Shown: positions 1-14,477, numbered from the stretch's first letter. The stretch: 64,000 nucleotides of DNA from Flavobacteriales bacterium (GCA_046074525.1 JBJTOK010000079.1:9894-73893), one strand, 5' to 3'. Notes: a model not told the origin generated them from the letters alone. Numbers and translations: made by a program.

Positions 1-1680
1 CACCAACGGTTCAATTTCGGAGATGATGCGTGGGCGGTTTTCGGCCAGTACAAGGATGATGGGTTTTCCTGTTTTGGCCAATTCTTTAACCAGATTCAAC
101 TGCGCTTTTTCCATGGTTAAATCTTCAATATCGCCTGGTTTTTCGGCCGATGGTTTTTCTCCGAGGCACACAATAATGAAATTAGCGTTTTGAGCTTCTT
201 TTACAGCTTTTCCGGTATTTACATCGCTGTCATAAGAAGTACCCTGTACGAAAATTACTTTGTCACTGCCGATTTCATTTTGAATGGCTTGTACTATTGT
301 TTTTTTATCGGTGGGATTGTATTTGTCGTCAACTCCCTGCCATGTATGTGTCCACGCACCATTCAGAGGATTTAATGAATTGGCAGCAACACCGCAAACC
401 AATGTTTTTTTATCTTTTGGTAATGGGAGAATGTTGTTTTTGTTTTTCAGCAGGGTGATGCTTTCTAGTGCTGCCTGGAAATTTTGTTGGGCAAATTCTG
501 CCGATCCGAATTTCGGATAGTTTTTCATTTCATAGTAAGGATGTTCGAAGAGTCCGAGCATGAATTTTACGCGCAAAATTCTTCTTACTGCATCATCAAT
601 CCGGCTCATGGGAACTTTTTCTTCTTTCACCAGTTCGATGAGCAATTTGCAGAAAGATACATCCTGCGGAGTCATACTCATATCGATACCGGCGTTGATG
701 GCCAGGGCGATGGCATCTTTATATGTAGGTGCTACTTTGTGCACGCTGTGAAGCATAATAATGTCTTCCCAATCGGTCACTGCAAAGCCCTGGAAGTTCA
801 ATTCCTGTTTTAAAATTTCTGTGAGGATGTGATAATCGGCATGCACCGGTGTTCCGTTAATTTCGGTGGAGTTGATCATCACAGTCATCGCTCCGTTTTT
901 AATGGCTTCGGCAAAGGGAACTAAATAATATTCACGCAATAATCTTTCGGGCATAAGTATAGGTGTTCTGTCTTTTCCGGAAGCAGGCTGACTGTAGCCT
1001 ACAAAATGTTTGAGACAGGCTGCTACTTTTTCGGGATCATTGAAATTATTGCCCTGATAACCTTTGATAGCGGCATTTCCCATTTGCGTGGCCAGATAAG
1101 GATCTTCACCATAAGTTTCAAAGAAACGCGACCAAAGAGGTTGTCGACCCAAGTCGAGTACAGGAGAAAAATTCCACGGAATAGCAGAAGCGCGCACTTC
1201 ATACGCACAAACAGAGGTTCCTTTTTCTACGAGAGAAGGATTCCAAGTTGCAGCCATTCCCAATTCCTGAGGGAAGAGTGTGGATCCTTGTGTAAAGGTA
1301 GCTCCGTGTATCGCATCAATTCCGTAAAGAACAGGAATTTTCATTCGTGTTTTTTCGGCAGCTGTTTTCTGAATACTGCTGATGATGGTATACCAGTTTT
1401 CCCTGCTTAAGGTATGAGATCCTGTATTCAGTATGGAACCTACATGGTAGCGCAATAAAACCGAATCGAGTTTTACGGAATCGATTTCCATGGTTTTAGC
1501 ATCTTCGGCACTTTTTTTACAAACCATATCGAGGGTGAGCTGCGTCATTTGTCCCACTTTTTCTTCGAGGGACATTTCCGATAATAAGCGGGTGATTTTC
1601 TCTTCGGTGTCGTTTTGCTGAGCCTGTAATACAGAGAGTGATAAGCAAAGCAGCGACAGGGATATGGTTTTGAGATTCAT
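1..1680 (-). CDS. Glycoside hydrolase family 3 (beta-glucosidase-like), N-terminal roughly 560 aa. The gene starts at 1680 and runs off the window start. It is absent from the ORF track because no stop lies inside the window.
   Basis: The reverse-strand translation from the ATG at 1680 gives a signal peptide (MNLKTISLSLLCLSLSVLQA). It then gives a GH3 N-domain pattern (EEKVGQMTQLTLDMV) and GH3 C-domain-like sequence towards position 1. A 6-bp gap to the upstream gene supports an operon. Confidence 0.75.
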   Translation of the reverse strand, partial: MNLKTISLSLLCLSLSVLQAQQNDTEEKITRLLSEMSLEEKVGQMTQLTLDMVCKKSAEDAKTMEIDSVKLDSVLLRYHVGSILNTGSHTLSRENWYTIISSIQKTAAEKTRMKIPVLYGIDAIHGATFTQGSTLFPQELGMAATWNPSLVEKGTSVCAYEVRASAIPWNFSPVLDLGRQPLWSRFFETYGEDPYLATQMGNAAIKGYQGNNFNDPEKVAACLKHFVGYSQPASGKDRTPILMPERLLREYYLVPFAEAIKNGAMTVMINSTEINGTPVHADYHILTEILKQELNFQGFAVTDWEDIIMLHSVHKVAPTYKDAIALAINAGIDMSMTPQDVSFCKLLIELVKEEKVPMSRIDDAVRRILRVKFMLGLFEHPYYEMKNYPKFGSAEFAQQNFQAALESITLLKNKNNILPLPKDKKTLVCGVAANSLNPLNGAWTHTWQGVDDKYNPTDKKTIVQAIQNEIGSDKVIFVQGTSYDSDVNTGKAVKEAQNANFIIVCLGEKPSAEKPGDIEDLTMEKAQLNLVKELAKTGKPIILVLAENRPRIISEIEPLV

Positions 1681-1686
1681 GACAAA

Positions 1687-2661
1687 TTATGGTTGATAAG
1701 GTTTGTTGAAAGTAAATACAGGATGATCAAAAGCAACTGACACAGGATTGGTGTAAGGCGCAGTTTGATCGGAAAGCAATACAAAAGATACACTGGTCAG
1801 CTTATTTGGTTTAGCATCTCCGGTAACGTTGGCATCGGGAATCAAATCGTTGTAATTGTAGCTGAGTAATTTCCATCCATACCAATCGGGACGAATGCTG
1901 ATACCTCTTGCGTTTACACCATTTTCTGAGAAGTTTATCTGCAACCAGGTATCAGAAGGACCTTTGCCATACACCATGATATTGAAGTAAACGCGGTTCG
2001 CATCAGGGTATAAAGGGAAGTAAGTGCCATAATCCTCATCGGCATATTTAGCACTGATGGTCATGTAATTCACATATGGATTGTTTTGCCATGGTGTTCC
2101 CGACATATAGAAAAATTTTCCGCCGTCGGCCAGGATATTGTCTGTGTAAACATTGTTGGTAATGCTTACAGGAGGCCAGTCGCGTGGCCATTCGGTATTG
2201 CTTTTCAGTGTAGCGAAATCAGTCACCAGTACACTTCCCGCATCATGATTCACCATACCGGTAGTGAAAAGCGTAGTGGTAAAAGTATCGGTAGTGTGTT
2301 TGAAAGTGAGTTGTGCAGTCACTGTTTCTTTCTGGAAAGAAGGAGCGTCATCGGCATAGCCTGTCCATCGTGAATTCGACGCATCAATCGTTTTTGAAAT
2401 ACCTTTGATGGTTTTCACAGCAGTGCTTGTATTTCCTTTAAGAGTAATCTGCCATTCGGTTTCATTTTCAAATTCGGCAGTGAAATACTGTTCTTCGTTT
2501 TTTGAAAAATCTACTGATGCTGCTTTTTTATCGAAGCCTGAAAGCACAGTCACCGGACCGGAGATGGTTGACAAATCGGGTCCTAAGTTTTCCTTTGAGC
2601 AGCTCCATCCGAATAAGAGAACGGAGCTAATGCCCAATGATATTAAAATTGATTTTTTCAT
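1687..2661 (-). CDS. Surface lipoprotein of unknown function, a candidate glycan-binding protein (SusE/F-like position in the operon).
   Basis: The N-terminus is a lipoprotein signal (MKKSILISLGISSVLLFGWSCSK). The protein is Trp/Tyr/Asn rich, and the gene is tightly coupled (11 bp and 6 bp gaps) between an OMP gene and the GH3 gene. Confidence 0.55.
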   Translation of the reverse strand: MKKSILISLGISSVLLFGWSCSKENLGPDLSTISGPVTVLSGFDKKAASVDFSKNEEQYFTAEFENETEWQITLKGNTSTAVKTIKGISKTIDASNSRWTGYADDAPSFQKETVTAQLTFKHTTDTFTTTLFTTGMVNHDAGSVLVTDFATLKSNTEWPRDWPPVSITNNVYTDNILADGGKFFYMSGTPWQNNPYVNYMTISAKYADEDYGTYFPLYPDANRVYFNIMVYGKGPSDTWLQINFSENGVNARGISIRPDWYGWKLLSYNYNDLIPDANVTGDAKPNKLTSVSFVLLSDQTAPYTNPVSVAFDHPVFTFNKPYQP

Positions 2662-2672
2662 AGTATATAATT

Positions 2673-4409
2673 TTAATAAGTCATGCTGAACATTACTACC
2701 ACCTGATTGATAGAGTAAGTATTGGCCGCAGTTTTATTATCTGTGTAGTTGAAGATATGGTCCTGTAAAGTGAGGTAAGTTTTTTCGCTGAAGCGGTATT
2801 TTAATCCCACTGCAATTAAGCTTTGTTTCAAATCAACATTGATAGGGTTGAAGGTGGTAATGTCATTGAATTTGTTTCTTACCGCCATTGATTCGTTACC
2901 TTGTGCGAGTAGCATTTTGTAGCCGGCGAGCAAGCTCAGTTTCTTGAAAGTTTCCACTTCCAGTCCGAGATCCACCATGTTGTTCATCAGACTCACATAA
3001 GTTGTAGTATCGCCGCCTCTGTTGGTAGATTCAAATTTGTAACCAGTATTCACAATCAATCTTTTTTTCCATCCGAGGAATTTATTGATGTGGAAATCAA
3101 CACCACCTTTTACCACGATGAAAGAGCGAAGTTGTGCGGAACCTTCACCTACTACTTCCGAAAGGAAAGCAGCATCAACATCGGCTATGATGCGTTGCAG
3201 TGAGTCGCTGCATTGCAGGTTGATGTTAGCGCCGGTACGGTTAGGTGTAGCTTTTCCGTAAGGTTGTGCATTGCCGTAAATTGGATTGTAAGCCATGAGT
3301 GTAGTTACAATTCCGGCATTGTATAAAGCAGGATCTCTCACCAGGTCGAAGATGGAAATGCCACGGGAGATAAGGTTTGTTACATCATTTCCATAGTTGG
3401 AAAAAGTAGTAGGTGTATTTGTGTAATTCACTCGTTTGCTTTGTGCTGCCGAGCTGAAGAAATTAGGATCAACATAAGAATAGTTGGCACTGATAATGGT
3501 GTTGGCATTCTTCAGTTTCAGTTGCAATCCGGCATCGAAGAAAGCCCCCATTTTGGTGTCTACATTATATCCTTTGAAGCTGTATTGCGAGAAACCACCT
3601 TCGGCCATTAATTTCAGTTTCATTTTATTGTTGGCAAACAGTGCCGCTTCCACTTCAGCAGAACCTACAGGATTGCTTGTAGTCAAACTGTCGATGATAG
3701 TATTGGTTCCTACTTCATAAAGATCGAGGTAGTTGAAAGCCAGTTTTAATTTGCTGCTTTGCGTTACCGTAATCTTACCTCCTGCGTGGAAGGCCGAAGG
3801 AAACTGGGCATAGCTGGCTCTGTTTCTGAGGAAGAAACCATCAATGCGAATGGTATCAAATAAAGATTTGTCGAACGCAAAAGAAAAATTAGTGTGCGCT
3901 CCCTGCTGCCACCATGCATTGCCGCGGTTGCTGAAGTTTTCATAATTTGTGTAATCGTTGCGCAAATCGCGGAATATGCTTCCTTCGTTCACAGAACCTT
4001 CTGCGTTGTTGTTGAAGAAAGTATAAGGAGTGAGCTGCATATATAAATCTCCTACCTGATAATTAAAAGCTCTTCCAACAATGCCTTTTACATAAAGTTG
4101 TCGCAATGTTGCCTGGGCACCGGCAGTATAGAAGCCATTGAAATTATTGTTGAAACGCACGATGGCCTGTATCTCAGTTCTTTTGTCGGGATTAACATTG
4201 ATACCCAAATCGAGTAACACATTTCCTTTATTGGTATGGTCGGGATTAACGGTATCGGCTGCTCCCAGCGTATTGGTTTGTTGCAATGCCCTTGAATAGG
4301 CATTGAATTTTATTTTGTCATCCTGTGCGTTCATCAATTGAACGCCGATGAGCATTAAGCCGGCTAAGAGCGCTTTCTTATTCATTTTATGTAGATATGA
4401 AGTTTGCAT
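2673..4409 (-). CDS. Uncharacterised outer-membrane beta-barrel candidate (putative porin-like). The true start is probably the internal ATG at 4385 (MNKKALLAGLMLIGVQLMNAQ).
   Basis: It has a cleavable signal peptide without a lipobox Cys. Amphipathic alternating beta-strand patterns occur throughout (LKLAFNYLDLYEV, KLKLMAEGGF). The C-terminus is aromatic (..VVVMFSMTY). No TonB box or plug motifs are present. Confidence 0.5.
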   Translation of the reverse strand: MQTSYLHKMNKKALLAGLMLIGVQLMNAQDDKIKFNAYSRALQQTNTLGAADTVNPDHTNKGNVLLDLGINVNPDKRTEIQAIVRFNNNFNGFYTAGAQATLRQLYVKGIVGRAFNYQVGDLYMQLTPYTFFNNNAEGSVNEGSIFRDLRNDYTNYENFSNRGNAWWQQGAHTNFSFAFDKSLFDTIRIDGFFLRNRASYAQFPSAFHAGGKITVTQSSKLKLAFNYLDLYEVGTNTIIDSLTTSNPVGSAEVEAALFANNKMKLKLMAEGGFSQYSFKGYNVDTKMGAFFDAGLQLKLKNANTIISANYSYVDPNFFSSAAQSKRVNYTNTPTTFSNYGNDVTNLISRGISIFDLVRDPALYNAGIVTTLMAYNPIYGNAQPYGKATPNRTGANINLQCSDSLQRIIADVDAAFLSEVVGEGSAQLRSFIVVKGGVDFHINKFLGWKKRLIVNTGYKFESTNRGGDTTTYVSLMNNMVDLGLEVETFKKLSLLAGYKMLLAQGNESMAVRNKFNDITTFNPINVDLKQSLIAVGLKYRFSEKTYLTLQDHIFNYTDNKTAANTYSINQVVVMFSMTY

Positions 4410-4420
4410 ATAGAAGAAGT

Positions 4421-6373
4421 TTAGAACATTATTTTTAATTCAACAGTACCTTCTGTTCCCGAGAATTTTTCTGCGGCGAAGTTGTGATCGATGAAAGAGA
4501 AATATCTTTCTCTGAAGTAAAGTGTGGCCTGGTTGGAGAGTGTCAAATCGAAACCAGCTCCGATGGCCTGTCCTACCTGATCTCTTGGTAAACCTGATGT
4601 AATATCCAAATCAGTGTCTCCGTTGCATTTGATCACTTCTAGTCCGCCATAAAGCGTCAGAACGAAATTTTTATGCAGTTGGTAGTACACATCTATTTCA
4701 TGGTAATAGCCTCTGATGTAGGCACTGTAATCAAATTTTGTAAAGGCCGAAAAATCTTTCTGTACCGAGTTGAGTGAAGTAAGATAGTTGATGTACAAAT
4801 CTTTCCTGAACAGCGAACTTTTGAATTTTACCTGGAAATCGAAAGAGTTGAAATAACGGGTATAAATCAAAGAAGAATCGGCATTGATATCGGTAAGATT
4901 TACTTTTTCGTAAGCTCCGCGATAGAAAGTGTGCACTCTTTTGTTTGGTCCGAAACCACCGGCGAGAGGGAATACCCCTGGCAATCTCGACCAAAGAAGG
5001 CCGTTGATTCTGTGACTGTAGTTCAGTGTAGTAGCATTGGCAATGTTTTCCATTTCAGCAGAAATCTGTGTCCCGGTGGACACCATAAATTTCCATACTT
5101 TGAAATTGGTGTTGATGGCAGCACCTCTGCGGTTGTTGGCTAAATCGCCTACATTGTCCATTCCCGGACCGAAAGGGGTGAGTACTCCTTGCGCTCCTGC
5201 TTGTGAATAAGGACCGCTGTTGACCTGACTAACAGTGGTATTGTTAAAACTGGCTACGTTGCTGGTAAAACTTTTTCCGATTTGGAAATAACGCAAATCA
5301 ATAGGAATGAAAGTGTATTTTTTTGGAATGTTTACATCCAGTAAAATTCCTTCGCTCCAGTTTTCAGGGCTAGTCGGACTCATATATCTTCCCATACCTA
5401 CTTCACCGCTCAGAGCAATATCTTTGATTTTAAGTGCAAATTCCGAAGTGAAAATATTCCACTGCATGTTGTAAGAAGAGTTGACACTGTCGGTGCGCGC
5501 AAATGAATTAAATGTATTTAAGCTCACATAGTTTTCCTTTTTCAGGTTTCTCTTAAGTCGCACACCGAGATTTTGTGCCGGACGCACTTCGATTTCCCGG
5601 CTGATGCCACCGTTGATAGCAGTGTGTCCGTAAAAAATATCAAAGTTGGTTTTCAGTTTCTTGATGAAGCCATTCATCATAAATCCTTTAAAGGCTTGAG
5701 ATCCGAAACGGGCATCCTGGTTGATGCTTCCTTTATAATAATAAGAAGCATAACGCGATTTGATATTTCCTGATGGATCCCATGGGCGGCGTTCATAAAT
5801 GCTATAGCGGTTGTAACCTACGTTGGAACCAAAGGTGAACGGAGTAAGGCGCATCCATTCAATACCACCGGCTACAATATTGAAATTTCCATGTTTATTG
5901 GTGGTGCCGCCGCGCAAAACAGCAGAGAAAAAAGGACCAACATTTCCGTTGCTGCCCATAGCCGGACCGCGGTAAAGGGTAAACGGACTTCCCAGTATAA
6001 CTTCGGTACCAAAGCTGGTACCCGGTGCAGGAGATCCGCCCACATAAAGAAATAACACAGGATCATAATAGCCGTCACCCACACTGTTTACATGTTTTGC
6101 GTCAGTAGGCTGATACAGTTGTTGCATTTCCCTGTTGTAGAAAAAACCTCTGTAGTAACCACCTGTGTTGAGACCGCTCAGAAAGTTGTTCAATAAACTT
6201 TTGGATACCGGCGCAGTGATTTCGTCGGAAGTATTTTCTCTCACGAGAGAATTTCTCTGAATATCCCAGGATGCAGAATCCCTGTCTGTTTGTGCATGTA
6301 CAGTGCCGAGGCAACATGCAAAAAGCAGGGGAAGAAAGTGTTTTTTATGAAGAGTAAGATTCATTATTTCCAA
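4421..6373 (-). CDS. Uncharacterised outer-membrane beta-barrel candidate (putative porin family, about 650 aa).
   Basis: A signal peptide is present. The protein is Gly/Asn/Tyr/Phe-rich with alternating hydrophobic strands, and the C-terminus ..GTVELKIMF ends in Phe as classical OMP barrels do. It is too short for a SusC TonB-dependent transporter and has no TonB box. It sits 13 bp downstream of the GH16 gene. Confidence 0.5.
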   Translation of the reverse strand: MEIMNLTLHKKHFLPLLFACCLGTVHAQTDRDSASWDIQRNSLVRENTSDEITAPVSKSLLNNFLSGLNTGGYYRGFFYNREMQQLYQPTDAKHVNSVGDGYYDPVLFLYVGGSPAPGTSFGTEVILGSPFTLYRGPAMGSNGNVGPFFSAVLRGGTTNKHGNFNIVAGGIEWMRLTPFTFGSNVGYNRYSIYERRPWDPSGNIKSRYASYYYKGSINQDARFGSQAFKGFMMNGFIKKLKTNFDIFYGHTAINGGISREIEVRPAQNLGVRLKRNLKKENYVSLNTFNSFARTDSVNSSYNMQWNIFTSEFALKIKDIALSGEVGMGRYMSPTSPENWSEGILLDVNIPKKYTFIPIDLRYFQIGKSFTSNVASFNNTTVSQVNSGPYSQAGAQGVLTPFGPGMDNVGDLANNRRGAAINTNFKVWKFMVSTGTQISAEMENIANATTLNYSHRINGLLWSRLPGVFPLAGGFGPNKRVHTFYRGAYEKVNLTDINADSSLIYTRYFNSFDFQVKFKSSLFRKDLYINYLTSLNSVQKDFSAFTKFDYSAYIRGYYHEIDVYYQLHKNFVLTLYGGLEVIKCNGDTDLDITSGLPRDQVGQAIGAGFDLTLSNQATLYFRERYFSFIDHNFAAEKFSGTEGTVELKIMF

Positions 6374-6386
6374 TGTTTATTAAGGT

Positions 6387-7289
6387 TTATAATTTTTTAA
6401 ACACGCGTACATAGTCCACATACATGTACTTCGGGAAAAGAGTGTTTTCATCAGGAGGCCCAGGCCAGTCGCCACCCACAGCGAGGTTTAGTATCATGTG
6501 AAAATTCTGGTCGAAAGGCCAATGCTTTCCATCGAGGTCTCCCGGTTTTTTAGTAGAGTAGAGGACATCGTCCACGTACCATCTTATTTCATTCGGTTCC
6601 CATTCTACAGAGAAAACATGGAAGGCAGTAGACAAATCTCCTTGCGAGAGTTCGGTGGTGTCGCCTACGTGTTTGTTTTTAGGCCAGGGCTCACCAAAGT
6701 GAATGGTACCGTATACCGTTTTAGGCTGGTGGCCGATGGATTCCATGATGTCAATTTCACCACTCTGCGGCCATGAACCGTACACATAATCGGTAGGCAG
6801 CATCCATATGGCAGGCCATGTTCCTCTTTGCACAGGCACTTTAGCCCGGATGTCGAAACGCCCGTAAGTCCAGTCGGCTTTGTTCTTCGTACGCATTCTC
6901 GCCGAAGTGTAAAACTTGCCTTTGTAGTTTTGTTTAATGGCCTTGATGACCAGATATTTATTGTTGTTGATGTAAGAGTTGTTGCGTGAATCGGTATAGT
7001 ACTGCTGCTCATTATTTCCACCTCCGTCGCCGTTTACTTCATGACTCCATTTACTGGTGTCGATTTTAGGAGCGCTGAATTCATCGCTCCAGATGAGTTT
7101 CCAGCCAGTTCTTGATTCCGGCGATTTGTAACCGTTGTCGGTGGTGGTGGTATTGTCGACAATCACCACTTCCGATGCAGGTTGGTAGAGGTCGGGTAAA
7201 TCGACCAGACTTACCTGCGAGCACTTGCTGAAAAGCAGTGCTGATGAGGCAAGGATAGTGAATAAGTAAATGTTCTTTTTGATATACAT
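6387..7289 (-). CDS. Glycoside hydrolase family 16 endo-beta-1,3(4)-glucanase (laminarinase/lichenase type).
   Basis: The GH16 catalytic motif E-I-D-I-M-E appears in WPQSGEIDIMESIG. There is an N-terminal signal peptide (possible lipoprotein, ..LLFSKCSQ), and the length of 300 aa is typical. Confidence 0.85.
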   Translation of the reverse strand: MYIKKNIYLFTILASSALLFSKCSQVSLVDLPDLYQPASEVVIVDNTTTTDNGYKSPESRTGWKLIWSDEFSAPKIDTSKWSHEVNGDGGGNNEQQYYTDSRNNSYINNNKYLVIKAIKQNYKGKFYTSARMRTKNKADWTYGRFDIRAKVPVQRGTWPAIWMLPTDYVYGSWPQSGEIDIMESIGHQPKTVYGTIHFGEPWPKNKHVGDTTELSQGDLSTAFHVFSVEWEPNEIRWYVDDVLYSTKKPGDLDGKHWPFDQNFHMILNLAVGGDWPGPPDENTLFPKYMYVDYVRVFKKL

Positions 7290-7312
7290 GTTAGTTGGAT
7301 TATGGTGGTTGT

Positions 7313-7891
7313 TTATTTTTTGATGAAGCGGATTTCATCGAAGTAAATCGTACCTACAGGAAGTACCATATACAACATGGTGTTTACTCTTTTGAAATCG
7401 TGGCCTTTTAAGCTGATGCTGAATTTTTTCCATTCGGTATCCACCTCCAGGTAGCTGTCGCTCACTTTGTCTTCAGGCGAACCTCCACCACCTACACCAA
7501 TGTCTTGCAGCAGGTAGGGGCCATCACCAGTTTCTTCAGCACGCGCGTAAAATTCCAGTGTGTTGTAGGCAGAAAGATCAGGTAGTTTAGCATCGTCCTT
7601 CAATGCTACATTCCATGAACCGGTGTATTGAATATGCAAACCTCTCCAGCTTTCTTTGTTGGTGGTAACGATTTTTACACAGTTTTCACCTTTGTAAGGC
7701 TTGTCTTTGCAGACACTTTCAATTTTCATGCTTTCACCATTTTTTTCTCCCATGAATCCTGTGGGAATACCGTGAATCCAGTTGTCGGAGAAAACATAAT
7801 AAGGTTCAACTTCCCCTTCGATGAAGGATATGGAAAGAACGGCGAGTGCCAAGACTGCTGCTGTTTTTAAAATTGTTCGGATGTGCATCAT
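7313..7891 (-). CDS. Small secreted protein of unknown function and first gene of the beta-glucan operon. It is a paralog of 8419..9042 and a possible carbohydrate-binding-module-like protein.
   Basis: It has a signal peptide. It shares motifs with 8419..9042 (GFMGxxNGxSMxIxxxC...ESW..., TEW+K, TIYxD+IR+). The gap to the GH16 gene is 23 bp. Confidence 0.5.
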   Translation of the reverse strand: MMHIRTILKTAAVLALAVLSISFIEGEVEPYYVFSDNWIHGIPTGFMGEKNGESMKIESVCKDKPYKGENCVKIVTTNKESWRGLHIQYTGSWNVALKDDAKLPDLSAYNTLEFYARAEETGDGPYLLQDIGVGGGGSPEDKVSDSYLEVDTEWKKFSISLKGHDFKRVNTMLYMVLPVGTIYFDEIRFIKK

Positions 7892-7916
7892 ATACCTTTT
7901 TTATTTTTTTTTATGG

Positions 7917-7924
7917 GCTATTGA
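7917..7924 (-). promoter_or_regulatory. Candidate Bacteroidota sigma-A -7 element (TAccTTTG) for the beta-glucan operon.
   Basis: The reverse strand reads TACCTTTG, matching TAnnTTTG, 26-33 nt upstream of the ATG at 7891. No clear -33 TTG was found. Confidence 0.25.
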
Positions 7925-8207
7925 ATCAAAGGTAGGCGGGGTGTCTTCTTTGAATGTGTGACAATCGTTCGGAAAGAGTACAAAATCATCCGTAGGATTT
8001 GTTCGCTGATCTTTTAGTGAAATTGAAGAAGGGAAATGTTTTTTTTTGATTCGTACGATAATGAACTCTTTGTGAATGATTTTGTTCCCTTGTATTGCTC
8101 TCTGTGATTTACTTTTGTGAAGAGTAGTAAATTTCATAGTGCTGTAATAAAAACATCTGTTGCGTACAGGTGTAGAGGTTAACCAGAACGCTAGTTTAAG
8201 TTGATTC

Positions 8208-8245
8208 TGTCCCGTGCTTTAGAGGGAAAGCACGGGATTTTTTTG
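8208..8245 (+). terminator. Orphan intrinsic-terminator-like hairpin (10-bp stem cccgtgcttt/aaagcacggg followed by T7) on the plus strand, with no upstream plus-strand gene.
   Basis: The stem-loop plus U-tract is read directly from the sequence. It lies 170 nt upstream of the 8419 start codon in a 528-bp divergent spacer. Confidence 0.35.
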
Positions 8246-8418
8246 TTTTATAATTTTCTTAGTGAATTTTTTTTCTCGCGCATGTCATCCTTCGGGAGTA
8301 CCCTCGGGATGACATACGCGGGGAGAGACAGGGAAAATGTTAGCTAGTACAAACGAAGACTTTTTCTGTACAAATCAATCCCTATCTGCGCGCAGAGCGG
8401 TCCTACCTTAGCTCTATA

Positions 8419-9042
8419 ATGCCAAACCCAACAACTATGAATAAGATTATAAAACTGACAACACTGGCGCTGATTACAGCTGTGTTTTCATCCTGTACAA
8501 AGGATCCGATTTTAGCTGCCGATCAAAATAAAAAAACCGAGACCACTACCACTTCAACTGCAAGCGATGGTGAGCTTTATCTTGAAGAGCAACTGTATCC
8601 GCTCAATGGATTTATGGGGTCGAATAATGGTCAGAGCATGACCATTGATCACCTTTGCACAGAAAACCCTCATTCAGGAAAACATTGTTTGTCGATTACT
8701 TTCGACGGTAGTGAATCGTGGAGCGGGAATGTAATGTTTGCTTCTACACCATGGAAGTCGAATATTGGAAAAGATCTCTCCGGATATAAAAGACTCACCT
8801 TCTGGACACGCTGTAATCAAAAGGGTTTGGGTAACGGACAAATCCACATGGGGATGAAAACCAACGGCAATGATTTTTACGGACAGTTTTTCAATTACAC
8901 CAGTACCGAGTGGAGAAAAATTACCATCACACTTCCTGGAACAGTGAACAGTACACTCATCAATTATCTTTTTGAATATTCACAGAATGCACCCGTAGCA
9001 GGATCAACTATTTACCTGGATGATATCCGTTACGAGAAATAG
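8419..9042 (+). CDS. Small lipoprotein and paralog of 7313..7891 (unknown function, CBM-like). The start is possibly the ATG at 8437 (MNKIIKLTTLALITAVFSSC).
   Basis: There is a lipoprotein signal with Cys, and it shares the conserved blocks of 7313..7891. A terminator lies downstream. Confidence 0.5.
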   Translation: MPNPTTMNKIIKLTTLALITAVFSSCTKDPILAADQNKKTETTTTSTASDGELYLEEQLYPLNGFMGSNNGQSMTIDHLCTENPHSGKHCLSITFDGSESWSGNVMFASTPWKSNIGKDLSGYKRLTFWTRCNQKGLGNGQIHMGMKTNGNDFYGQFFNYTSTEWRKITITLPGTVNSTLINYLFEYSQNAPVAGSTIYLDDIRYEK

Positions 9043-9065
9043 TTTTCTTTCCTAACCCGTGTCCC

Positions 9066-9104
9066 GAGGGATTCGTCCGAAAGGAGAATCCCTCTTCTTT
9101 TTAG
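9066..9104 (+). terminator. Intrinsic terminator (gagggattc ... gaatccctc, then ttctttttag).
   Basis: A 9-bp perfect stem plus a T-rich tract sits 24 nt after the stop of 8419..9042. Confidence 0.5.
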
Positions 9105-9127
9105 ATGAAAATTAAAACACAATCAAT

Positions 9128-10099
9128 ATGAAGTATAGAAATTTAGGAAAAACAAACAGAAGCGTAAGTGCCATGGGCTATGGCATGTGGGGTTTGGCCG
9201 GCTGGACCGGCAGTGATGAAAAAGAAGTGAACAAAGCTTTGGATAAAGCAGTGGAAATGGGCTGTAATTTTTTTGATACCGCGTGGGATTACGGCGCAGG
9301 AAAAAGTGAGCAGATGCTGGCCGAACTCATCAAAAGAAATCGCGGAAGTCAATTGATTGCCGCTACAAAAATTCCACCGATGAATAAAAAGTGGCCGCCT
9401 GTCAAAGGATCTTCTATTGAAGAAGTTTTTCCTGTTCATCACATCATGGAATATACAGAGAAGAGTTTAAAAAATTTGCAGACCGACGCTATTGACCTTC
9501 TGCATTTTCATGTGTGGGAAGATGAATGGTCGAAGCGTGATGAATGGAAAATGGCTGTGTTAAAATTAAAGCAGGAAGGAAAAGTAAAATCTTTTGGGAT
9601 CAGTGTTAACCGCTGGGAGCCATCGAATTGTTTGCAGGCTCTGGAAAGCAGATTGATTGATGTGGTACAGGTGATTTATAATATTTTCGATCAGTCTCCC
9701 GAAGATGAACTTTTCCCTTATTGTCTTGAAAATAATATCGGCGTAATTGCCCGTGTTCCTTTTGATGAAGGTTCGCTGACAGGAGGTCTGACAAAAACTA
9801 CCGTGTGGCCCGAAGGCGACTGGCGCAATATTTATTTCTGTAAGGAAAATTTAGTGCCGACTGTAGATAGGGTAGAGGCACTCAAAAAAGTTGTTCATGA
9901 GGGAATGACATTGCCCGAGTTGAATTTGAAATTCATTTTGAATCATCCTGCGGTGTCCACCATTATTCCGGGAATGAGGAAGGTGCAGCATGTAGAAGAG
10001 AACATGAATGCTGTAAAGGGAAAGTTGTTGTCGTTAGAAATGATGCAGCATCTAAAACAATACCGCTGGGATAGACAACCGACGGTGTGGTCGTGTTAA
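9128..10099 (+). CDS. Aldo/keto reductase family oxidoreductase.
   Basis: The N-terminal pattern is LGKTNRSVSAMGYGMWGL, the length is 323 aa, and it is an AKR-fold family member. Confidence 0.8.
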   Translation: MKYRNLGKTNRSVSAMGYGMWGLAGWTGSDEKEVNKALDKAVEMGCNFFDTAWDYGAGKSEQMLAELIKRNRGSQLIAATKIPPMNKKWPPVKGSSIEEVFPVHHIMEYTEKSLKNLQTDAIDLLHFHVWEDEWSKRDEWKMAVLKLKQEGKVKSFGISVNRWEPSNCLQALESRLIDVVQVIYNIFDQSPEDELFPYCLENNIGVIARVPFDEGSLTGGLTKTTVWPEGDWRNIYFCKENLVPTVDRVEALKKVVHEGMTLPELNLKFILNHPAVSTIIPGMRKVQHVEENMNAVKGKLLSLEMMQHLKQYRWDRQPTVWSC

Positions 10100-10105
10100 C
10101 TTTTA

Positions 10106-10213
10106 AACCATAAAGGGCACAGAGATCACAGAGTTATCGTGCGCAAAGAAAACAGCTTAAAGCTGCAAGCTCTGTGTTCAAATCGGTCTCTGCGATCTCT
10201 GTGCCTTGTGGTT
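10106..10213. repeat. Intergenic nested-hairpin repeat element (copy A of a 2-copy family, REP/MITE-like). It fills the convergent spacer between the AKR gene and the secreted GH16 gene.
   Basis: The terminal imperfect 27-bp IR is aaccataaagggcacagagatcacagag / ctctgcgatctctgtgccttgtggtt. The internal palindrome is cagcttaaagctg. It shares end motifs and a gcgcaaagaaaacagct core with the 14489..14638 copy, in inverse orientation. Confidence 0.5.
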
Positions 10214-10223
10214 AAGTAAGAAG

Positions 10224-12356
10224 TTAATCCATCTTCACTATTCTCAATGTCTTCACCTGATCGGCATATTGCGCCTGCACAATATAAGTGCCCTGTGCCA
10301 AATCTTCACCTATGTTAATCGTTTCATTGGTTTTTACATTGTGTTGCTGTGCCACTGACCCGTTGAGGTTGAAAATCGTTAACTGCACAGATGAGTTCAA
10401 TGAATGCTCGAAGGTCAATGAAATTCTTTCACTAAACGGATTAGGGAAAGCATTGATTTGCGCATTGCTTATTTCATTAATACCAACATTGCAATTTTGT
10501 TTTGCAACAGTGATGGCTTTGCTTACTGTGTTACCAACGCAGAGGAGAGAACTTGTTTCTACTACCGACACATTCCCGCTGATGGTGTCAAAATCCACTG
10601 TAATGTTTTTGGTGCCTTGTCCGGAAGCAATTGTTGCCCCTGATGGCACTGTCCAGTTGAAGGTTGATCCGCTCATTCCAGTTACCGAATAAGCCACGCC
10701 TTTTTTATTGTAGCACACAGTAGTGTTGCCGGTGATAGCTGAAGTAGCAGGTGTTCCTTCTATCTTCAGGTTATCGAAATAATAAGTGTGATTGGTGAAA
10801 GAATTGGAGTTGAACAGTATTTGTATTTTATCCACGTCGCTTCCTTTCAAGGCACCATCAGGTGAAGACACCCATTTGAAGGTCAGTTTTGTCCAGGTGT
10901 TGGGAGCGCCCGTTGTAGCAGTATATTGGCTGTGTCGACCGTAAGGCCATCCTTTGGAAAGATCGGCTACTTTGTCAAATTCGATGGTGATCGTGGTTCC
11001 CTGCGGTGCCGAAGTTTTAACGTCCATGGTAAACTGACGGATTCCTTTTCGGAAATCATCGGGATCGGCTACCAGGAATTTTGTAAATCCGAGAATATCG
11101 TATTGCGATCCGCTATTGCGGGTGTATGATGCGCAGTAATCGGAAGAGTTACTTCCACCTTTTGCTGAGTTGGTAATTGGGGCATTTAAAGAGCCATCTG
11201 ATGAAGCACCGCTGAGGTAACGGTTATTTTCGAAATCGTCCATGATGATGGAGCAACTTTTGTCGATTGCTGTAACGCTCAGTTTTGCAGTTGTCATGCT
11301 ACAGCCGGATGGCGTGATATCGCAGGAAATATCTCCTTTGAGTGCCGAATTGTATTTTACACTGATGGATTTTGTTCCTTGTCCGCTCTCAATTGAAGCA
11401 CCGCTTGGGACAGTCCAGTTGTAAGTAGCATTCGCACCAGCATCGCTGGCAGTATAGGTTTGCGTGTCGTTGGTGAAGTTGAGTTCTTTACCTCCTACAT
11501 ATAAATAGCTGCCCGAAGTGTATACGCGAACATAATCTACGTACATTGAAACCGGATAATCGGAACTAACAGGAGTAGCGTTGCCGGTGTAAGTTCCACC
11601 AACGGCAAGATTGAGAATGATATAAAACGGACTGTCATCAAAAGTCCAGTCGGAAGCAGTAGCACCTTTGCCTGCAATGGTAGCAGGTGTAATAGTTTTT
11701 GTTACTACCCCGTCAACAGAAAATTTTATTTCCTGAGGCGCCCAGTCGATGGCATAAATATGATAATCGGCCGACCAGTCGGTACCGGTATTGTAATCAT
11801 TGTACACATATTGGTGATTGCCACAAGGTGTACAATAGAAGTGAACTGTTTGTGATGCTTTTTTTGGATTCTTGTTTTGTGTTTCCAGAATATCAATTTC
11901 TCCACTTTGAGGCCAGTTGTTGTTGTCGGAAAGCATCCAGAATGCCGGCCATACTGCCGATGCAGAAGGTACTTTTATACGGGCTTCATAATGTCCGTAT
12001 TTCCACGAATGCTTCTGGTAGGTATATATTTTCCCTGAAGTATAGTCGCTGCCTGAGCTTTGGTAATTTTTTTGATATCTGGCTGTAAGCACCAGATTTC
12101 CTCCGGTGACATTTACATTGTTGATACTTGATGTGTAGAACTGTTTTTCATTATTACCGAATCCGCAGCCGGAAGATCCGCCGCAGCCATTGCCGGTAAC
12201 GACAGTCCAGTTATTGGTGTTAATGGCGGTGCTGTCAAATTCATCTGACCACACAAGTGTACTGCATTGTGCGGATGCTGAATTGCAAATAGCTGTTAGG
12301 GGTATAGCCAGCGTTAATAGTTTTTTTAGGGATGTAAGGGGTAGTTTTAATGCCAT
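10224..12356 (-). CDS. Secreted multidomain GH16 beta-glucanase (GH16 catalytic domain, Ig/PKD-like domain, CBM-like domain, Ig-like domain, T9SS type-A C-terminal sorting domain).
   Basis: It has a signal peptide, and the GH16 motif is WPQSGEIDILETQ. The C-terminal Por-secretion tail is (INAFPNPFSERISLTF....GTYIVQAQYADQVKTLRIVKMD). Confidence 0.85.
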   Translation of the reverse strand: MALKLPLTSLKKLLTLAIPLTAICNSASAQCSTLVWSDEFDSTAINTNNWTVVTGNGCGGSSGCGFGNNEKQFYTSSINNVNVTGGNLVLTARYQKNYQSSGSDYTSGKIYTYQKHSWKYGHYEARIKVPSASAVWPAFWMLSDNNNWPQSGEIDILETQNKNPKKASQTVHFYCTPCGNHQYVYNDYNTGTDWSADYHIYAIDWAPQEIKFSVDGVVTKTITPATIAGKGATASDWTFDDSPFYIILNLAVGGTYTGNATPVSSDYPVSMYVDYVRVYTSGSYLYVGGKELNFTNDTQTYTASDAGANATYNWTVPSGASIESGQGTKSISVKYNSALKGDISCDITPSGCSMTTAKLSVTAIDKSCSIIMDDFENNRYLSGASSDGSLNAPITNSAKGGSNSSDYCASYTRNSGSQYDILGFTKFLVADPDDFRKGIRQFTMDVKTSAPQGTTITIEFDKVADLSKGWPYGRHSQYTATTGAPNTWTKLTFKWVSSPDGALKGSDVDKIQILFNSNSFTNHTYYFDNLKIEGTPATSAITGNTTVCYNKKGVAYSVTGMSGSTFNWTVPSGATIASGQGTKNITVDFDTISGNVSVVETSSLLCVGNTVSKAITVAKQNCNVGINEISNAQINAFPNPFSERISLTFEHSLNSSVQLTIFNLNGSVAQQHNVKTNETINIGEDLAQGTYIVQAQYADQVKTLRIVKMD

Positions 12357-12677
12357 GATTTGTTTACTGTATTTGGTTTACAAAAGTTATTAAATTTTGC
12401 CTTAGCGCTTCTACAAGATAGAAATTATTACGTTGGGTTGCCGGGTTCGGTTTTTTGCGATTCAGGTGCTAAAATCGTTCGTAGTTTTTTTGTCTGGCTT
12501 TATTGTCGAGGCCTGTATGACGAATAGTAAAATTCGCTGAGTACTATTTTGCGCCTTTATTTGTACAATTTTAGCCCTCTTTTTCTTCGATAAACGAATA
12601 TTATTGTGTGTGCGGTAACGCTTTTGAGTCTTTTTCCTGTTGGAAGAGGAGAGGTAGTTTTATTTAATATAATATTT

Positions 12678-14477
12678 ATGAGGATTTTAAAAATCACTTT
12701 TGTTTTGTTGTGGCTTTCCACAACTTTGTTTTCACAGAGCACCAATCTGATTACCAACATCGATAACCGTCAGGTGCAAAACCTTAACGGGAAATGGAAA
12801 ATCATTATCGATCCTTATGAAAATGGATTTTACAATTACAGGTATGAGGAAAGTCCGACCGGTTATTTTAAAAATGAAAAACCGAAAACTCCTTCGGATT
12901 TAATAGAATACAATTTCGATGCGTCGGATGAATTGTATGTACCGAGCGACTGGAACTCGCAAATGCAGGAGTTGAAATGGTATGAAGGAACAATATGGTA
13001 CAAGCGCTCTTTTGATTATAAGAAAACCCCGGGAAAAAGAGTATTTGTTTACCTCGGTGCAGTAAATTATAAAGCGCATGTTTACCTCAATGGAAAAAAG
13101 CTGGGTGAACACACAGGAGGATTTACACCTTTTAATTTTGAAGTAACCGATCTGATCAAAGAGAAAGACAATTTCCTGGTGATCAAAGCCGACAACAAAA
13201 GAGCCAAAGATGCGGTGCCTACCTTGAATACTGATTGGTGGAACTATGGTGGCGTAACGCGTGATGTGAAGATTGTAGAGGTAAATACCACTTTTATTCA
13301 GGACACTTATATACAACTGGCTAAAGGCAGTTTGAACCAGATTTCAGGATGGGTAAAACTGAATGGCGACAACAAAGCAAAAAAAATCCGCGTGAGCATT
13401 CCTGAAGCAAAGTGGAGTGCAGATGTTACTACTAACGATGAAGGTGTGGCTGTGATCAGCGGTGATGCAAAACTCAGTTTGTGGTCACCCGAAAACCCGA
13501 AATTGTATCAGGTGCTGGTGATTGCCGGTCAGGATACTTTAACAGATCAGATTGGTTTCCGTTGTGTTGAAACAAAGGATCACGATATTTTACTGAATAA
13601 AAAGTCAGTTTTACTGAAAGGAGTTTGCATTCATGAAGAAGTACCCACACGTGGCGGAAGGGCTTACAGTATGGAAGATGCGCAATTGCTTTTGGGCTGG
13701 GCAAAATCTTTGGGTTGCAATTATGTTCGACTGGCGCATTATCCGCACAATGAAAATATGACGCGCCTGGCTGATAAAATGGGATTGATGGTTTGGTCGG
13801 AAATTCCGGTGTACTGGACTATTGAGTGGAGCAATCCCTTGGTGCTGGAAAATGCGGAAAAGCAATTGACGGAAATGGTGCTGCGCGATAAGAATAAAGC
13901 GTCGGTAGTAATCTGGTCGATGGCTAATGAAACACCATTAAGCGCAGCACGCCTGACTTTCCTGAAAAATTTAATTGAAACCACGCGTCAGTTGGATAAT
14001 ACACGCTTGATTTCAGCAGCACTTGAAGTACACAATTCAAATAAAAATACGATGATGATTGATGATCCGCTGGGCGAATATCTGGATGTATTGGGATGTA
14101 ACGAATACATAGGATGGTACGGCGACAGAAAACCTGAAGAGTGCGATTCCATTTCATGGACCACCAAGTACAACAAGCCTCTGGTGATCAGTGAAACCGG
14201 GGCCGATGCAGCTTATGGTTTTCATGGCGCAACCGATCAGCGTTTTACCGAAGAATACCAGGCCAATTATTTTCAGCATCAATTGCTGATGTTGGGCAGG
14301 ATAGATTTCCTAAGAGGAATTTCTCCGTGGGTATTGGCCGATTTCCGTTCGCCGCGTCGTCCTTTGTCGAATGTTCAGGATTTCTGGAACAGGAAGGGAT
14401 TGATTTCGGAGCATGGTGAAAAGAAGAAAGCATTTTTTGTGGTGAAGAACTTTTATGAGAATTGGAAGTTGAAGTAG
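12678..14477 (+). CDS. Glycoside hydrolase family 2 enzyme (beta-galactosidase/beta-glucuronidase/beta-mannosidase-like). The ORF-track start at 12606 is probably upstream of the real ATG at 12678 (MRILKITFVLLWLSTTLFSQ signal peptide).
   Basis: The GH2 sugar-binding domain pattern is (VFVYLGAVNYKAHVYLNGKKLGEHTGGFTPFNFEVTDL). The TIM-barrel acid/base region is WSMANE. Confidence 0.8.
   Translation: MRILKITFVLLWLSTTLFSQSTNLITNIDNRQVQNLNGKWKIIIDPYENGFYNYRYEESPTGYFKNEKPKTPSDLIEYNFDASDELYVPSDWNSQMQELKWYEGTIWYKRSFDYKKTPGKRVFVYLGAVNYKAHVYLNGKKLGEHTGGFTPFNFEVTDLIKEKDNFLVIKADNKRAKDAVPTLNTDWWNYGGVTRDVKIVEVNTTFIQDTYIQLAKGSLNQISGWVKLNGDNKAKKIRVSIPEAKWSADVTTNDEGVAVISGDAKLSLWSPENPKLYQVLVIAGQDTLTDQIGFRCVETKDHDILLNKKSVLLKGVCIHEEVPTRGGRAYSMEDAQLLLGWAKSLGCNYVRLAHYPHNENMTRLADKMGLMVWSEIPVYWTIEWSNPLVLENAEKQLTEMVLRDKNKASVVIWSMANETPLSAARLTFLKNLIETTRQLDNTRLISAALEVHNSNKNTMMIDDPLGEYLDVLGCNEYIGWYGDRKPEECDSISWTTKYNKPLVISETGADAAYGFHGATDQRFTEEYQANYFQHQLLMLGRIDFLRGISPWVLADFRSPRRPLSNVQDFWNRKGLISEHGEKKKAFFVVKNFYENWKLK

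Follow-up and report, generated by a model that had tools for sequence, protein, structure and literature searches.

How do glucan fragments cross the outer membrane of a Bacteroidota bacterium when the operon that degrades them holds no SusC/SusD pair? Such pairs serve to define, predict and count Bacteroidota PULs, and their expression is taken as an indicator of glycan turnover in marine, lake, soil and gut settings. The question is raised by a 64,000-nucleotide stretch of DNA, here called the window, from an uncultured Flavobacteriales bacterium (GCA_046074525.1 JBJTOK010000079.1:9894-73893). A preliminary description of this DNA had assumed a Chitinophagaceae setting, which is corrected by the source record, labelled as a Flavobacteriales MAG (loci ACKOXB_15225/15220).

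Six co-directional genes are packed on the minus strand at positions 1..7891. They had been described as separated by 6-23 bp, and recomputation from the ORF coordinates returned exactly such gaps, of 23, 13, 11, 11 and 6 bp in order of transcription. The open frames lie at 7313..7891 (192 aa), 6387..7289 (300 aa), 4421..6373 (650 aa), 2673..4409 (578 aa) and 1687..2661 (324 aa), and a sixth starts at 1680 and leaves the window at position 1. The Logan contig L088 represents the same DNA; there the sixth gene, encoding a GH3 enzyme, is complete and closes the operon. On its 3' side lie a hairpin accompanied by a T-run and, beyond these, convergent genes. Upstream, a candidate Bacteroidota -7 promoter box, TACCTTTG (7927..7934, minus strand; consensus TAnnTTTG), was read from the sequence 36 nt 5' of the operon's first ATG, but a chance origin is plausible because only six bases are specified, with about 0.25 occurrences expected in this spacer. 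The operon includes neither an inner-membrane transporter nor a regulator, no ECF sigma gene was seen in its vicinity, and an Rfam scan of positions 1..13000 gave no match.

Searches against Pfam and NCBIfam recognised the GH16 and GH3/BglX-like enzymes and returned no match for the other four operon proteins. Gene 2 (6387..7289, minus strand) encodes a predicted GH16 endo-beta-1,3-glucanase, or laminarinase (Pfam GH16, E 1.8e-23), with a lipobox (...LLFSKC-SQV...) marking it as a lipoprotein; its nearest solved structures are the laminarinases 3iln (E 2e-67), 2hyk and 3azx. Gene 6 (1..1680, minus strand) contributes the first 560 codons of a GH3 exo-beta-glucosidase with an SPI signal peptide, 746 aa long when complete in L088, which matches an exo-beta-1,3/1,6-glucosidase (E 1e-95) and BglX (E 4e-88). 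Both results agree with the earlier assignment of a beta-glucan operon. Outside the operon, a 710-aa GH16 protein (10224..12356, minus strand) combines its catalytic domain (Pfam GH16, E 2.5e-21) with PKD-like domains (PKD_6, E 2.4e-25) and a type IX secretion C-terminal domain (Por_Secre_tail, E 2.2e-9). Judged by these domains, it is probably a secreted or surface endo-glucanase feeding the operon's system, and GH16 proteins with T9SS tails were seen again in related loci.

The preliminary description had reported an operon free of SusC and SusD, and neither was found among the six genes. The PULDB/CAZy definition of a PUL, which calls for at least one susC/susD pair, accordingly does not cover it. 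Among 122 members of the families represented by genes 3 and 4 (56 for gene 3, hereafter A1, and 66 for gene 4, hereafter A2), none matched Plug (PF07715) or TonB_dep_Rec at E <= 0.01, and no Plug domain was detected by Pfam in the window proteins. No residues are conserved between the A1 signal peptide and its first strand, where a TonB box would be sought, and A2 has no such segment; the earlier report that plug and TonB box are missing was thus borne out across both families. Homology to SusC or other TonB-dependent transporters (TBDTs; 22-strand barrels, PF00593 and relatives) was rejected, the hhalign probability against a SusC being below 1%. Likewise, the SusD/RagB families PF07980, PF12771 and PF14322 had no match in 47 members of the family of gene 5, hereafter L. 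Uptake through A1 and A2 is probably independent of TonB.

A1 (4421..6364, minus strand; NCBI protein P0001) has 647 aa when counted from its ATG, or 650 aa from an alternative TTG start at 6373, while A2 (2673..4385, minus strand; P0090) has 570 aa from its ATG at 4385, or 578 aa from an alternative start at 4409. Neither matched Pfam, NCBIfam or PDB sequences, so that the HMM check proposed for the two large proteins yielded no family and no SusC/SusD relationship. Exact look-ups of P0176 and P0090 also returned no match. A few members of the A1 and A2 families match OMP_b-brl, and a CBM_4_9 domain was found at the N-terminus of one A1 member. AlphaFold2 modelled A1 as a large beta-barrel of approximately 22-24 strands (pLDDT 80) and A2 as a beta-barrel of 22 strands by DSSP (pLDDT 90), each with short turns on the periplasmic side and long loops on the extracellular side. 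A1 ends in ...ELKIMF and A2 in ...VMFSMTY, and the last residue is Phe in all 56 A1 members and Phe or Tyr in 65 of the 66 A2 members (121/122 overall); sequences with an AQ-type cleavage motif number 65/66 in A2 and 42/56 in A1. With a signal peptide, a closed antiparallel barrel and a C-terminal aromatic beta-signal, both are predicted to be outer-membrane beta-barrels, as had been proposed. The same proposal called them porin-like; the barrel fold stands, whereas the size does not fit a classical porin, since 22-24 strands correspond to a TBDT rather than to the 16-18 strands of porins, and the sugar-porin families went unmatched. Membership in the classical sugar porins (LamB, OprB, KdgM and OprD/ChiP; 12-18 strands) was rejected on the same two counts, strand number and Pfam.

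The A1 and A2 profiles align with each other in hhalign at 97.6%, and the two proteins appear to be distant paralogs. A1 begins with a disordered tail of about 35 residues (pLDDT <50) that shows no conservation across the family alignment, and the first strand of A2 starts about 4 residues past the signal-peptide cleavage site. Two long loops of A2 are highly conserved and lie at extracellular-side positions, L3 (residues 117-157) and L7 (residues 306-382), the latter carrying the motifs AQSKRV and PYGKATPNRxG. These loops could be taken as a built-in plug, opened non-canonically by TonB or by another transducer, in which case the pair would be energised after all and would represent a degenerate or convergent analogue of TonB-dependent transporters. 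We consider this unlikely. A plug-less pair of TBDT size does pose the question of how large oligosaccharides could enter without leaving the outer membrane leaky.

Related loci were gathered by a profile scan of genome contigs with an A2 sub-alignment, and 80 were retained, all from MAGs and none from Cytophaga hutchinsonii. Gene calls in these loci are crude, being longest ORFs grouped into single-linkage BLAST clusters, and family members come nearly all from MAGs. In all 82 loci with upstream DNA present, A1 lies directly 5' of A2 in the same order, and when the search was started from A1 instead, a gene of approximately 560-600 aa came next in 8/8 contexts. The arrangement is far beyond chance, recurring in the same order in more than 80 independent loci. 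Its carriers span several orders of Bacteroidota as well as Rubricoccaceae and include the culturable Rubricoccus marinus (BSZ36_11525 locus), and clustering of the family at 50% identity gives 600 clusters or more. A SusC homolog occurs within 10 kb in only 1 of 85 loci. Of 84 loci, 63 have neighbours recognisable as CAZymes or sugar-catabolism genes; the other 21 stayed unclassified, in part owing to short contigs. By enzyme set, 47 loci are of beta-glucan type (GH16/GH3/GH158), 7 combine GH18 with the GlcN-6-P enzymes NagB/PIG-L, and 9 carry GH13/GH31; a GH158 endo-beta-1,3-glucanase is present in 33 related loci, and GH9 adjoins A1 and A2 in further loci. Single MAGs hold several copies of differing enzyme type. 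The unit is therefore modular, with one core placed beside swapped enzyme sets.

These counts bear on the simplest alternative, namely that A1 and A2 are common outer-membrane proteins for general diffusion or housekeeping and that their place in a hydrolase operon is accidental. It draws on the fact that the two proteins have no annotated domains and that their function is read from their neighbours. Nevertheless, an order kept in every checkable locus across such a range of lineages, CAZyme or sugar-catabolism neighbours in most loci, and multiple copies per genome with differing enzyme sets all argue against it, and we regard it as very improbable. The picture of two separate porins is likewise replaced by that of a paralogous, obligately adjacent pair within a larger unit.

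Two further components complete this unit. L (gene 5; 1687..2661, minus strand) is a 324-aa SGBP-like lipoprotein with the lipobox ...FGWSC-SKEN.... Its family, of about 340 aa, lies directly 3' of A2 in 73 loci; the lipobox Cys is present in 71/71 members, and 67/71 have Asp or Glu at positions +2 to +5. Some members show weak matches to the beta-sandwich, CBM-type families SGBP_B_XBD, CBM_11, CIA30 and CBM30. L is a two-domain lipoprotein that is probably exposed at the cell surface. Gene 1 (7313..7891, minus strand) encodes a secreted 192-aa protein of family A5, with a signal peptide that has no Cys, a single CBM-like domain and no Pfam match. In hhalign it aligns (96.7%, E 3.6e-10) with the N-terminal CBM30-like domain of SGBP-B-like lipoproteins of about 394 aa found in related loci, and its own family occupies the same position in 13 loci. 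It represents the one-domain version of the fourth component, and a CBM-like protein is usually part of related loci as well. Homology between the 192-aa family and L was unsupported (hhalign 6%), and the comparison of L with the ~394-aa family was weak (40%). Divergent from the operon, a gene on the plus strand (8419..9042) encodes a 207-aa lipoprotein (...FSSC-TKD...) that falls into the BLAST cluster and the alignment of gene 1 and matches the A5 HMM with an E of 1e-66, alongside a weak choice-of-anchor-J match; this CBM-like paralog is probably an accessory surface glycan-binding protein. Neither the GH16 lipoprotein of gene 2 nor the ~394-aa lipoproteins have acidic residues after the Cys, and they may for this reason be oriented towards the periplasm, a difficulty for any simple surface model. 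Altogether, the outer-membrane core reads as a conserved four-part cassette of A1, A2, L and a CBM-like protein, standing in the place of SusC/SusD.

A search of the literature for non-SusCD loci or for such outer-membrane proteins led only to work on Cytophaga hutchinsonii and its cluster chu_1276-1280. This cluster is also said to be treated in Ji 2014, Zhou 2016 and Wang 2019. It has been described as an "atypical PUL" that is genetically required for cellulose and glucose uptake (Zhang 2025, PMC12016534). CHU_1276 and CHU_1277 are outer-membrane proteins on both of which cellulose use depends (PMC12016534; PMC5553014), and CHU_1276, for which a beta-barrel model with TBDTs among its matches has been reported, is additionally required for growth on low glucose (PMC12016534). 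CHU_1279 is an essential, SGBP-B-like protein of 375 aa, and CHU_1280 is a GH9 enzyme (PMC12016534; PMC5553014). In both the cassette and chu_1276-1280, two adjacent non-SusC barrels are followed in a single orientation by SGBP-like proteins of beta-sandwich type and a glycoside hydrolase; in C. hutchinsonii, a bimodular beta-sandwich protein and then an SGBP-B-like CBM protein follow the barrels, and an ECF sigma factor is involved.

The likeness is closest in the GH9-linked version of the cassette, which, compared with the published description, matches in both gene order and sizes. In the P0217/P0218 loci, an ECF sigma gene is followed by A1 (700-703 aa), by genes for proteins of 585-596, 374-395 and 379-381 aa, and by GH9; an ECF sigma gene also adjoins the relative L002. 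A metagenome scan with P0217 gave only two short contigs; one of them, a relative, shows the start of an A2-like gene after A1, opening with the A2 signature VxFxGxxRA. On the strength of gene order and sizes, the likeliest reading is that the cassette and CHU_1276-1279 are one and the same machine. The window operon differs in that its enzymes are GH16 and GH3 for beta-1,3-glucan rather than GH9 for cellulose, its CBM-like part is encoded by the first gene as a single-domain non-lipoprotein, whereas the C. hutchinsonii counterpart has 375 aa and follows L, and no regulator lies in or beside it. Furthermore, the published cluster was reported from only three cellulolytic species (PMC12016534), against hundreds of 50%-identity clusters here. 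The earlier suggestion that the route belongs to no characterised system consequently needs qualification, given that its cellulose-linked version shares gene order with the studied C. hutchinsonii cluster (PMC12016534).

The explanation we favour, with a probability of roughly 0.6 for the whole, is that the six genes make up an entire operon for the utilisation of laminarin (beta-1,3-glucan), in which the A1/A2/L/CBM cassette replaces SusC/SusD as the import module. In this model, the CBM-like proteins, L and the T9SS-secreted GH16 would capture and nick glucan at the cell surface, the A1/A2 barrels would let oligosaccharides through the outer membrane with no coupling to TonB, and the GH16 lipoprotein together with the periplasmic GH3 would break them down to glucose. 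Gene context suggests that import runs through the barrels, and entry may be passive, as in the earlier porin-based proposal; A1 and A2 probably form a hetero-complex, and L may act as a lid or delivery protein. Like the SusC/SusD core, the cassette takes a position between an endo-enzyme at the surface and an exo-enzyme in the periplasm, contains an obligate pair of genes accompanied by a lipoprotein, and is reused with varied CAZymes in several copies per genome. Both systems also have barrels of about 22 strands, but A1 and A2 have no plug, TonB box, N-terminal extension or sequence or profile similarity to SusC, the partner lipoprotein is a beta-sandwich rather than the alpha-helical SusD fold, and a paralogous pair of barrels takes the place of a single one. 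Sugar channels of Proteobacteria (the maltoporins LamB/ScrY, the chitoporin ChiP, CymA, KdgM and OprB) provide a working model for TonB-independent oligosaccharide passage; as proposed for A1 and A2, their genes lie beside those of catabolic enzymes and long inward-folding loops shape the channel.

Alternatively, the barrels might be no import route at all but a platform for anchoring or assembly, by which the lipoproteins and CBM-like proteins are held or exported to the surface, with sugars entering through other porins; one or both lipoproteins could then occupy the interior of a barrel, in the manner of LptE in LptD or MtrA in MtrB. However, SusCD-type loci display surface lipoproteins without such barrels, two barrels of 570-650 aa per locus would be a costly anchor, and the poor growth of the chu_1276 mutant on low glucose points to a channel (PMC12016534). 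We therefore consider a platform rather unlikely.

There is also a broader proposition, which we hold tentatively and at somewhat less than even odds. Bacteroidota and Rubricoccaceae would possess a second widespread archetype of glycan locus, built on a TonB-independent A1/A2 hetero-complex that dedicated beta-sandwich lipoproteins would cap or serve, and reused for laminarin, chitin, starch and cellulose, of which cellulose uptake in C. hutchinsonii would be one specialised member. Since 84 of 85 related loci have no SusC homolog within 10 kb, predictors based on SusCD would miss them. Glycan-degrading capacity would then be under-counted, chiefly in the uncultured freshwater, soil and rumen lineages from which almost all members derive, and the cassette has neither a Pfam/NCBIfam model nor a solved structure. 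For the problem of cellulose uptake in C. hutchinsonii, the family offers a large comparative set, with loop motifs that are conserved, residues that are invariant and relatives in which the substrate is swapped; among these, the versions for soluble substrates (laminarin, starch and chitin oligomers) lend themselves to assays much more readily than crystalline cellulose does.

In one related locus, L019, A1 and A2 appeared to be joined in a single open frame. A genuine fusion was rejected, as A1 ends normally (...ELKTFF) and A2 retains its own signal peptide; the join reads as a stop codon lost or mis-sequenced rather than as a Rosetta-stone fusion.

The operon at 1..7891 consists of six minus-strand genes called in one direction and separated by gaps of 23, 13, 11, 11 and 6 bp, in agreement with the 6-23 bp packing given in the preliminary description. 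Gene 1 (7313..7891) encodes 192 aa and gene 2 (6387..7289) 300 aa. Gene 3 (4421..6373), termed A1, encodes 650 aa from a TTG start, or 647 aa from the ATG at 6364, as in NCBI protein P0001; gene 4 (2673..4409), termed A2, encodes 578 aa, or 570 aa from the ATG at 4385 (P0090). Gene 5 (1687..2661), termed L, encodes a 324-aa lipoprotein, and gene 6 is an open frame from 1680 that runs off the window start. On Logan contig L088, which carries the same DNA, this final gene is seen whole as a 746-aa GH3 enzyme, followed by a hairpin with a T-run and then by convergent genes; the operon therefore comprises exactly six genes, none of which encodes a regulator or inner-membrane transporter. A TAnnTTTG-type box, TACCTTTG (7934..7927), 36 nt 5' of the first ATG, is a tentative candidate promoter element. 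Exact database matches of the DNA are named as a Flavobacteriales MAG.

Judged from the enzymes, the substrate is beta-1,3-glucan (laminarin), possibly together with mixed-linkage glucan. The gene 2 product is a GH16 enzyme (Pfam E 1.8e-23) whose nearest solved structures are laminarinases (3iln, E 2e-67; 2hyk; 3azx), and it bears a lipoprotein signal (…FSKC followed by SQV). The GH3 enzyme carries an SPI signal peptide, with exo-beta-1,3/1,6-glucosidase and BglX as best models, so that the earlier assignment of a GH16 laminarinase and GH3 beta-glucan operon holds. Another GH16 protein, at 10224..12356, combines PKD-like domains with a type IX secretion (T9SS) tail according to Pfam. Together with GH2 (12606..14477, +) and a 1417-aa GH43 (25266..29519, +) that also bears CBM6, F5/8-type-C and a T9SS tail, among other genes, the first 31 kb form a carbohydrate-enzyme island, within which no SusC or SusD was found. 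A TPR and DUF6377 protein directly after GH43 (29694..31301, +) is likely a regulator. The island also contains tandem giant paralogues of ~1700 aa each (14873..19975 and 20302..25314, +), comprising an N-terminal glucose/sorbosone-dehydrogenase (GSDH) domain, four Big_7 and four F5/8-type-C domains, with a T9SS tail in the first. Secreted PQQ-type sugar dehydrogenases adjoining glycan loci are unusual.

Neither A1 nor A2 has a match in Pfam, NCBIfam or PDB sequences, and a word-indexed search returned ~90-110 homolog clusters per barrel, none informatively named. AlphaFold2 models built from family alignments confidently predict barrels for both: A2 (pLDDT 90.0, pTM 0.85) with 22 strands, and A1 (pLDDT 80.3, pTM 0.79) with ~22-24 strands and 58 disordered N-terminal residues. 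The C-terminal residue, the usual beta-signal, is Phe in 56/56 A1 and Phe or Tyr in 65/66 A2 proteins. Profile comparison (hhalign 97.6%, E 3.5e-12, 477 columns) indicates that the two are distant paralogs. The preliminary observation stands, and its interpretation is largely right with three amendments, the first being that the barrels are not porin-like singletons; they form a paralogous pair of the size of TonB-dependent transporters (TBDTs).

No scanned A1 (56) or A2 (66) member matches Plug or TonB_dep_Rec, a few match OMP_b-brl, and both family profiles align to a real SusC with hhalign probability below 1%. When the DSSP string of the A2 model is read under usual barrel parity, the periplasmic-side turns span 3-10 residues, and two long, high-pLDDT loops, L3 (117-157) and L7 (306-382), lie on the extracellular side. 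These loops hold the family's most conserved motifs, AQSKRV and PYGKATPNRxG, with ERxPWDP and NNRxG as A1 counterparts. Since the motifs are invariant across loci of differing substrate, we infer a structural or gating role and not glycan recognition. The loops could conceivably serve as the plug of a cryptically energised transporter, an explanation that is unlikely. One A1-family barrel, P0088 (L089 4977..7352), carries a CBM_4_9 domain (residues 28-154) fused N-terminally; the N-terminal end of a normal outer-membrane barrel is periplasmic.

Genomic context was compared across four look-ups, 80 genome loci fetched by the PYGKATPN motif, and the window, almost all members deriving from MAGs. 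ORFs were called in every locus and scored with A1 and A2 family HMMs; gene calling and clustering were simple, and the 80 loci were chosen via this single A2 motif. A1 lies immediately 5' of A2 on the same strand in 82/82 loci having upstream DNA, the other three being contig ends, and contexts entered from A1 show a 560-600-aa gene directly 3' in 8/8. The gene 3' of A2 belongs in 73 loci to one ~340-aa family that includes L, some members of which weakly match SGBP_B_XBD, CBM_11, CIA30 or CBM30. In most loci a fourth component follows: in 40 loci this is a lipoprotein of ~394 aa containing CBM30 and SGBP_B_XBD domains, and in 11 it is a relative of ~243 aa with a single domain (hhalign 99.2%). 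The window has no such gene at the usual place after L; gene 1 (hhalign 96.7%, E 3.6e-10) and a divergent 207-aa lipoprotein (8419..9042) are homologous to its CBM-like domain, so all four components are represented. The second amendment is that the barrels belong to a four-part cassette.

The L family has a lipobox Cys in 71/71 members examined and Asp or Glu at +2..+5 in 67/71. Its consensus, C-K-K-E, resembles the Bacteroidota lipoprotein export signal (Lauber 2016; Valguarnera 2018), which makes surface exposure of L likely. In contrast, the ~394-aa family, resembling surface glycan-binding proteins (SGBPs), has a conserved non-acidic linker, C-G/V-x-R/F-M/K-x-T, where L has C-K-K-E/D (for example, L084 12712..13893 against L at L084 11678..12709). 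This sharp difference suggests different topologies or a barrel-contacting linker. As acidic residues after Cys are also absent from the GH16 lipoprotein, both it and the ~394-aa proteins may be periplasm-facing, or may arrive at the surface by a different path, perhaps via a barrel. That the barrels are a scaffold or export platform for the lipoproteins is improbable.

In 47 loci the cassette neighbours are GH16, GH3 and GH158; another 7 loci (and P0086) have GH18 alongside GlcN-6-P isomerase/PIG-L deacetylase, and 9 have GH13 and GH31 accompanied by type IX proteins with CBM20/48. Other loci are unclassified or short contigs. Regulators (propeller-LuxR, NrtR/NUDIX, ECF sigma) and inner-membrane transporters (SSF, MFS) also vary. 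Several cassettes of unlike type occur within single MAGs, as in CH-Oct18-48 (L006 and L009, beta-glucan; L060 and L075, GH18); chromosome OZ253953.1 has two, and the source MAG holds a second A2 paralog, P0095, on a different contig. A module serving glycan uptake in general would be expected to behave in this way; that A1 and A2 are unrelated housekeeping porins is very unlikely. A SusC homolog lies within 10 kb in 1/85 loci: in L004 (299..18143), a canonical laminarin PUL (SusC, SusD, PKD protein, GH16) stands back-to-back with a GH158/A1/A2/L/SGBP-like/GH3 cassette; both uptake systems can coexist for one substrate.

A genetically studied relative probably exists, which is the third amendment to the description, where no characterised system had been recognised. 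In Cytophaga hutchinsonii, the outer-membrane proteins CHU_1276 and CHU_1277 are both required for cellulose use; CHU_1276, needed also for low-glucose growth, was modelled as a TBDT-resembling barrel, CHU_1278 is a predicted bimodular beta-sandwich protein, CHU_1279 (375 aa) is essential and SGBP-B-like with two CBM-like domains, and CHU_1280 is a GH9 (PMC12016534; PMC5553014; PMC11611037). This atypical PUL, under ECF sigma factor control, was reported from three cellulolytic species only (PMC12016534; PMC5553014; PMC11611037). Profile searches place P0217 (E 3e-149) and P0218 (E 1e-144) in the A1 family, within clusters ordered ECF sigma, GidB, A1 (700-703 aa), 585-596 aa, 374-395 aa, 379-381 aa and GH9. 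Both these and the CHU cluster, known here from published descriptions, are ECF sigma-linked and end in GH9; in L086, a 67%-identical relative, the gene after A1 opens with the A2 N-terminal signature AQ..VxFxGxxRA. From this order and signature, the CHU cluster is probably the cellulose member of the cassette family.

The best-supported model, to which we assign a probability of about 0.6, combines surface capture with TonB-independent passage. Glucan would be captured at the surface by the CBM-like proteins and L and nicked there by the secreted GH16; oligosaccharides would pass through A1/A2 without TonB, as suggested by the lack of a plug, TonB box or conserved periplasmic segment; and the lipoprotein GH16 and periplasmic GH3 would complete hydrolysis. 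The cassette is of a kind barely characterised so far and is invisible to SusCD-based PUL prediction, and its relatives provide soluble-substrate systems in which the C. hutchinsonii problem is tractable. The family, although large, has neither annotation nor a solved structure; searched exhaustively, the A2 profile HMM recovered 794 representatives at 50% identity, of which 625 reach E <= 1e-10 and 310 reach E <= 1e-30.

Five cassettes (L010, L040, L056, L057, L071) occur in MAGs labelled Bifidobacterium/Bifidobacteriaceae, Gammaproteobacteria or Comamonadaceae; because cassette neighbours elsewhere include Bacteroidota-type T9SS-tail proteins, these assignments probably reflect wrong labels or mis-binned contigs. 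Seven others (L023, L027, L028, L031, L033, L034, L036), from rumen/gut Bacteroidales MAGs (sheep, buffalo, yak), have downstream genes of ~360-390 aa and ~226 aa, and no enzyme family was found among the clusters scanned. A 1301-aa ORF at L019 1015..4920, considered as an A1-A2 fusion, lacks the A1 stop codon and retains the A2 signal peptide, and probably reflects a sequencing error or recent mutation rather than a working fusion. Between the operon and the divergent 8419..9042 gene, the + strand of the spacer bears a strong terminator-like hairpin with a 12 bp stem (8209..8238) and a T-run, with no ORF 5' of it, and a sigma-70-like site (7958..7986); around 8275..8310 there is a further inverted repeat, GTCATCC…GGATGAC. 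The elements at 7958..8238 (+), which have no match in Rfam, could represent a small RNA or a leader.
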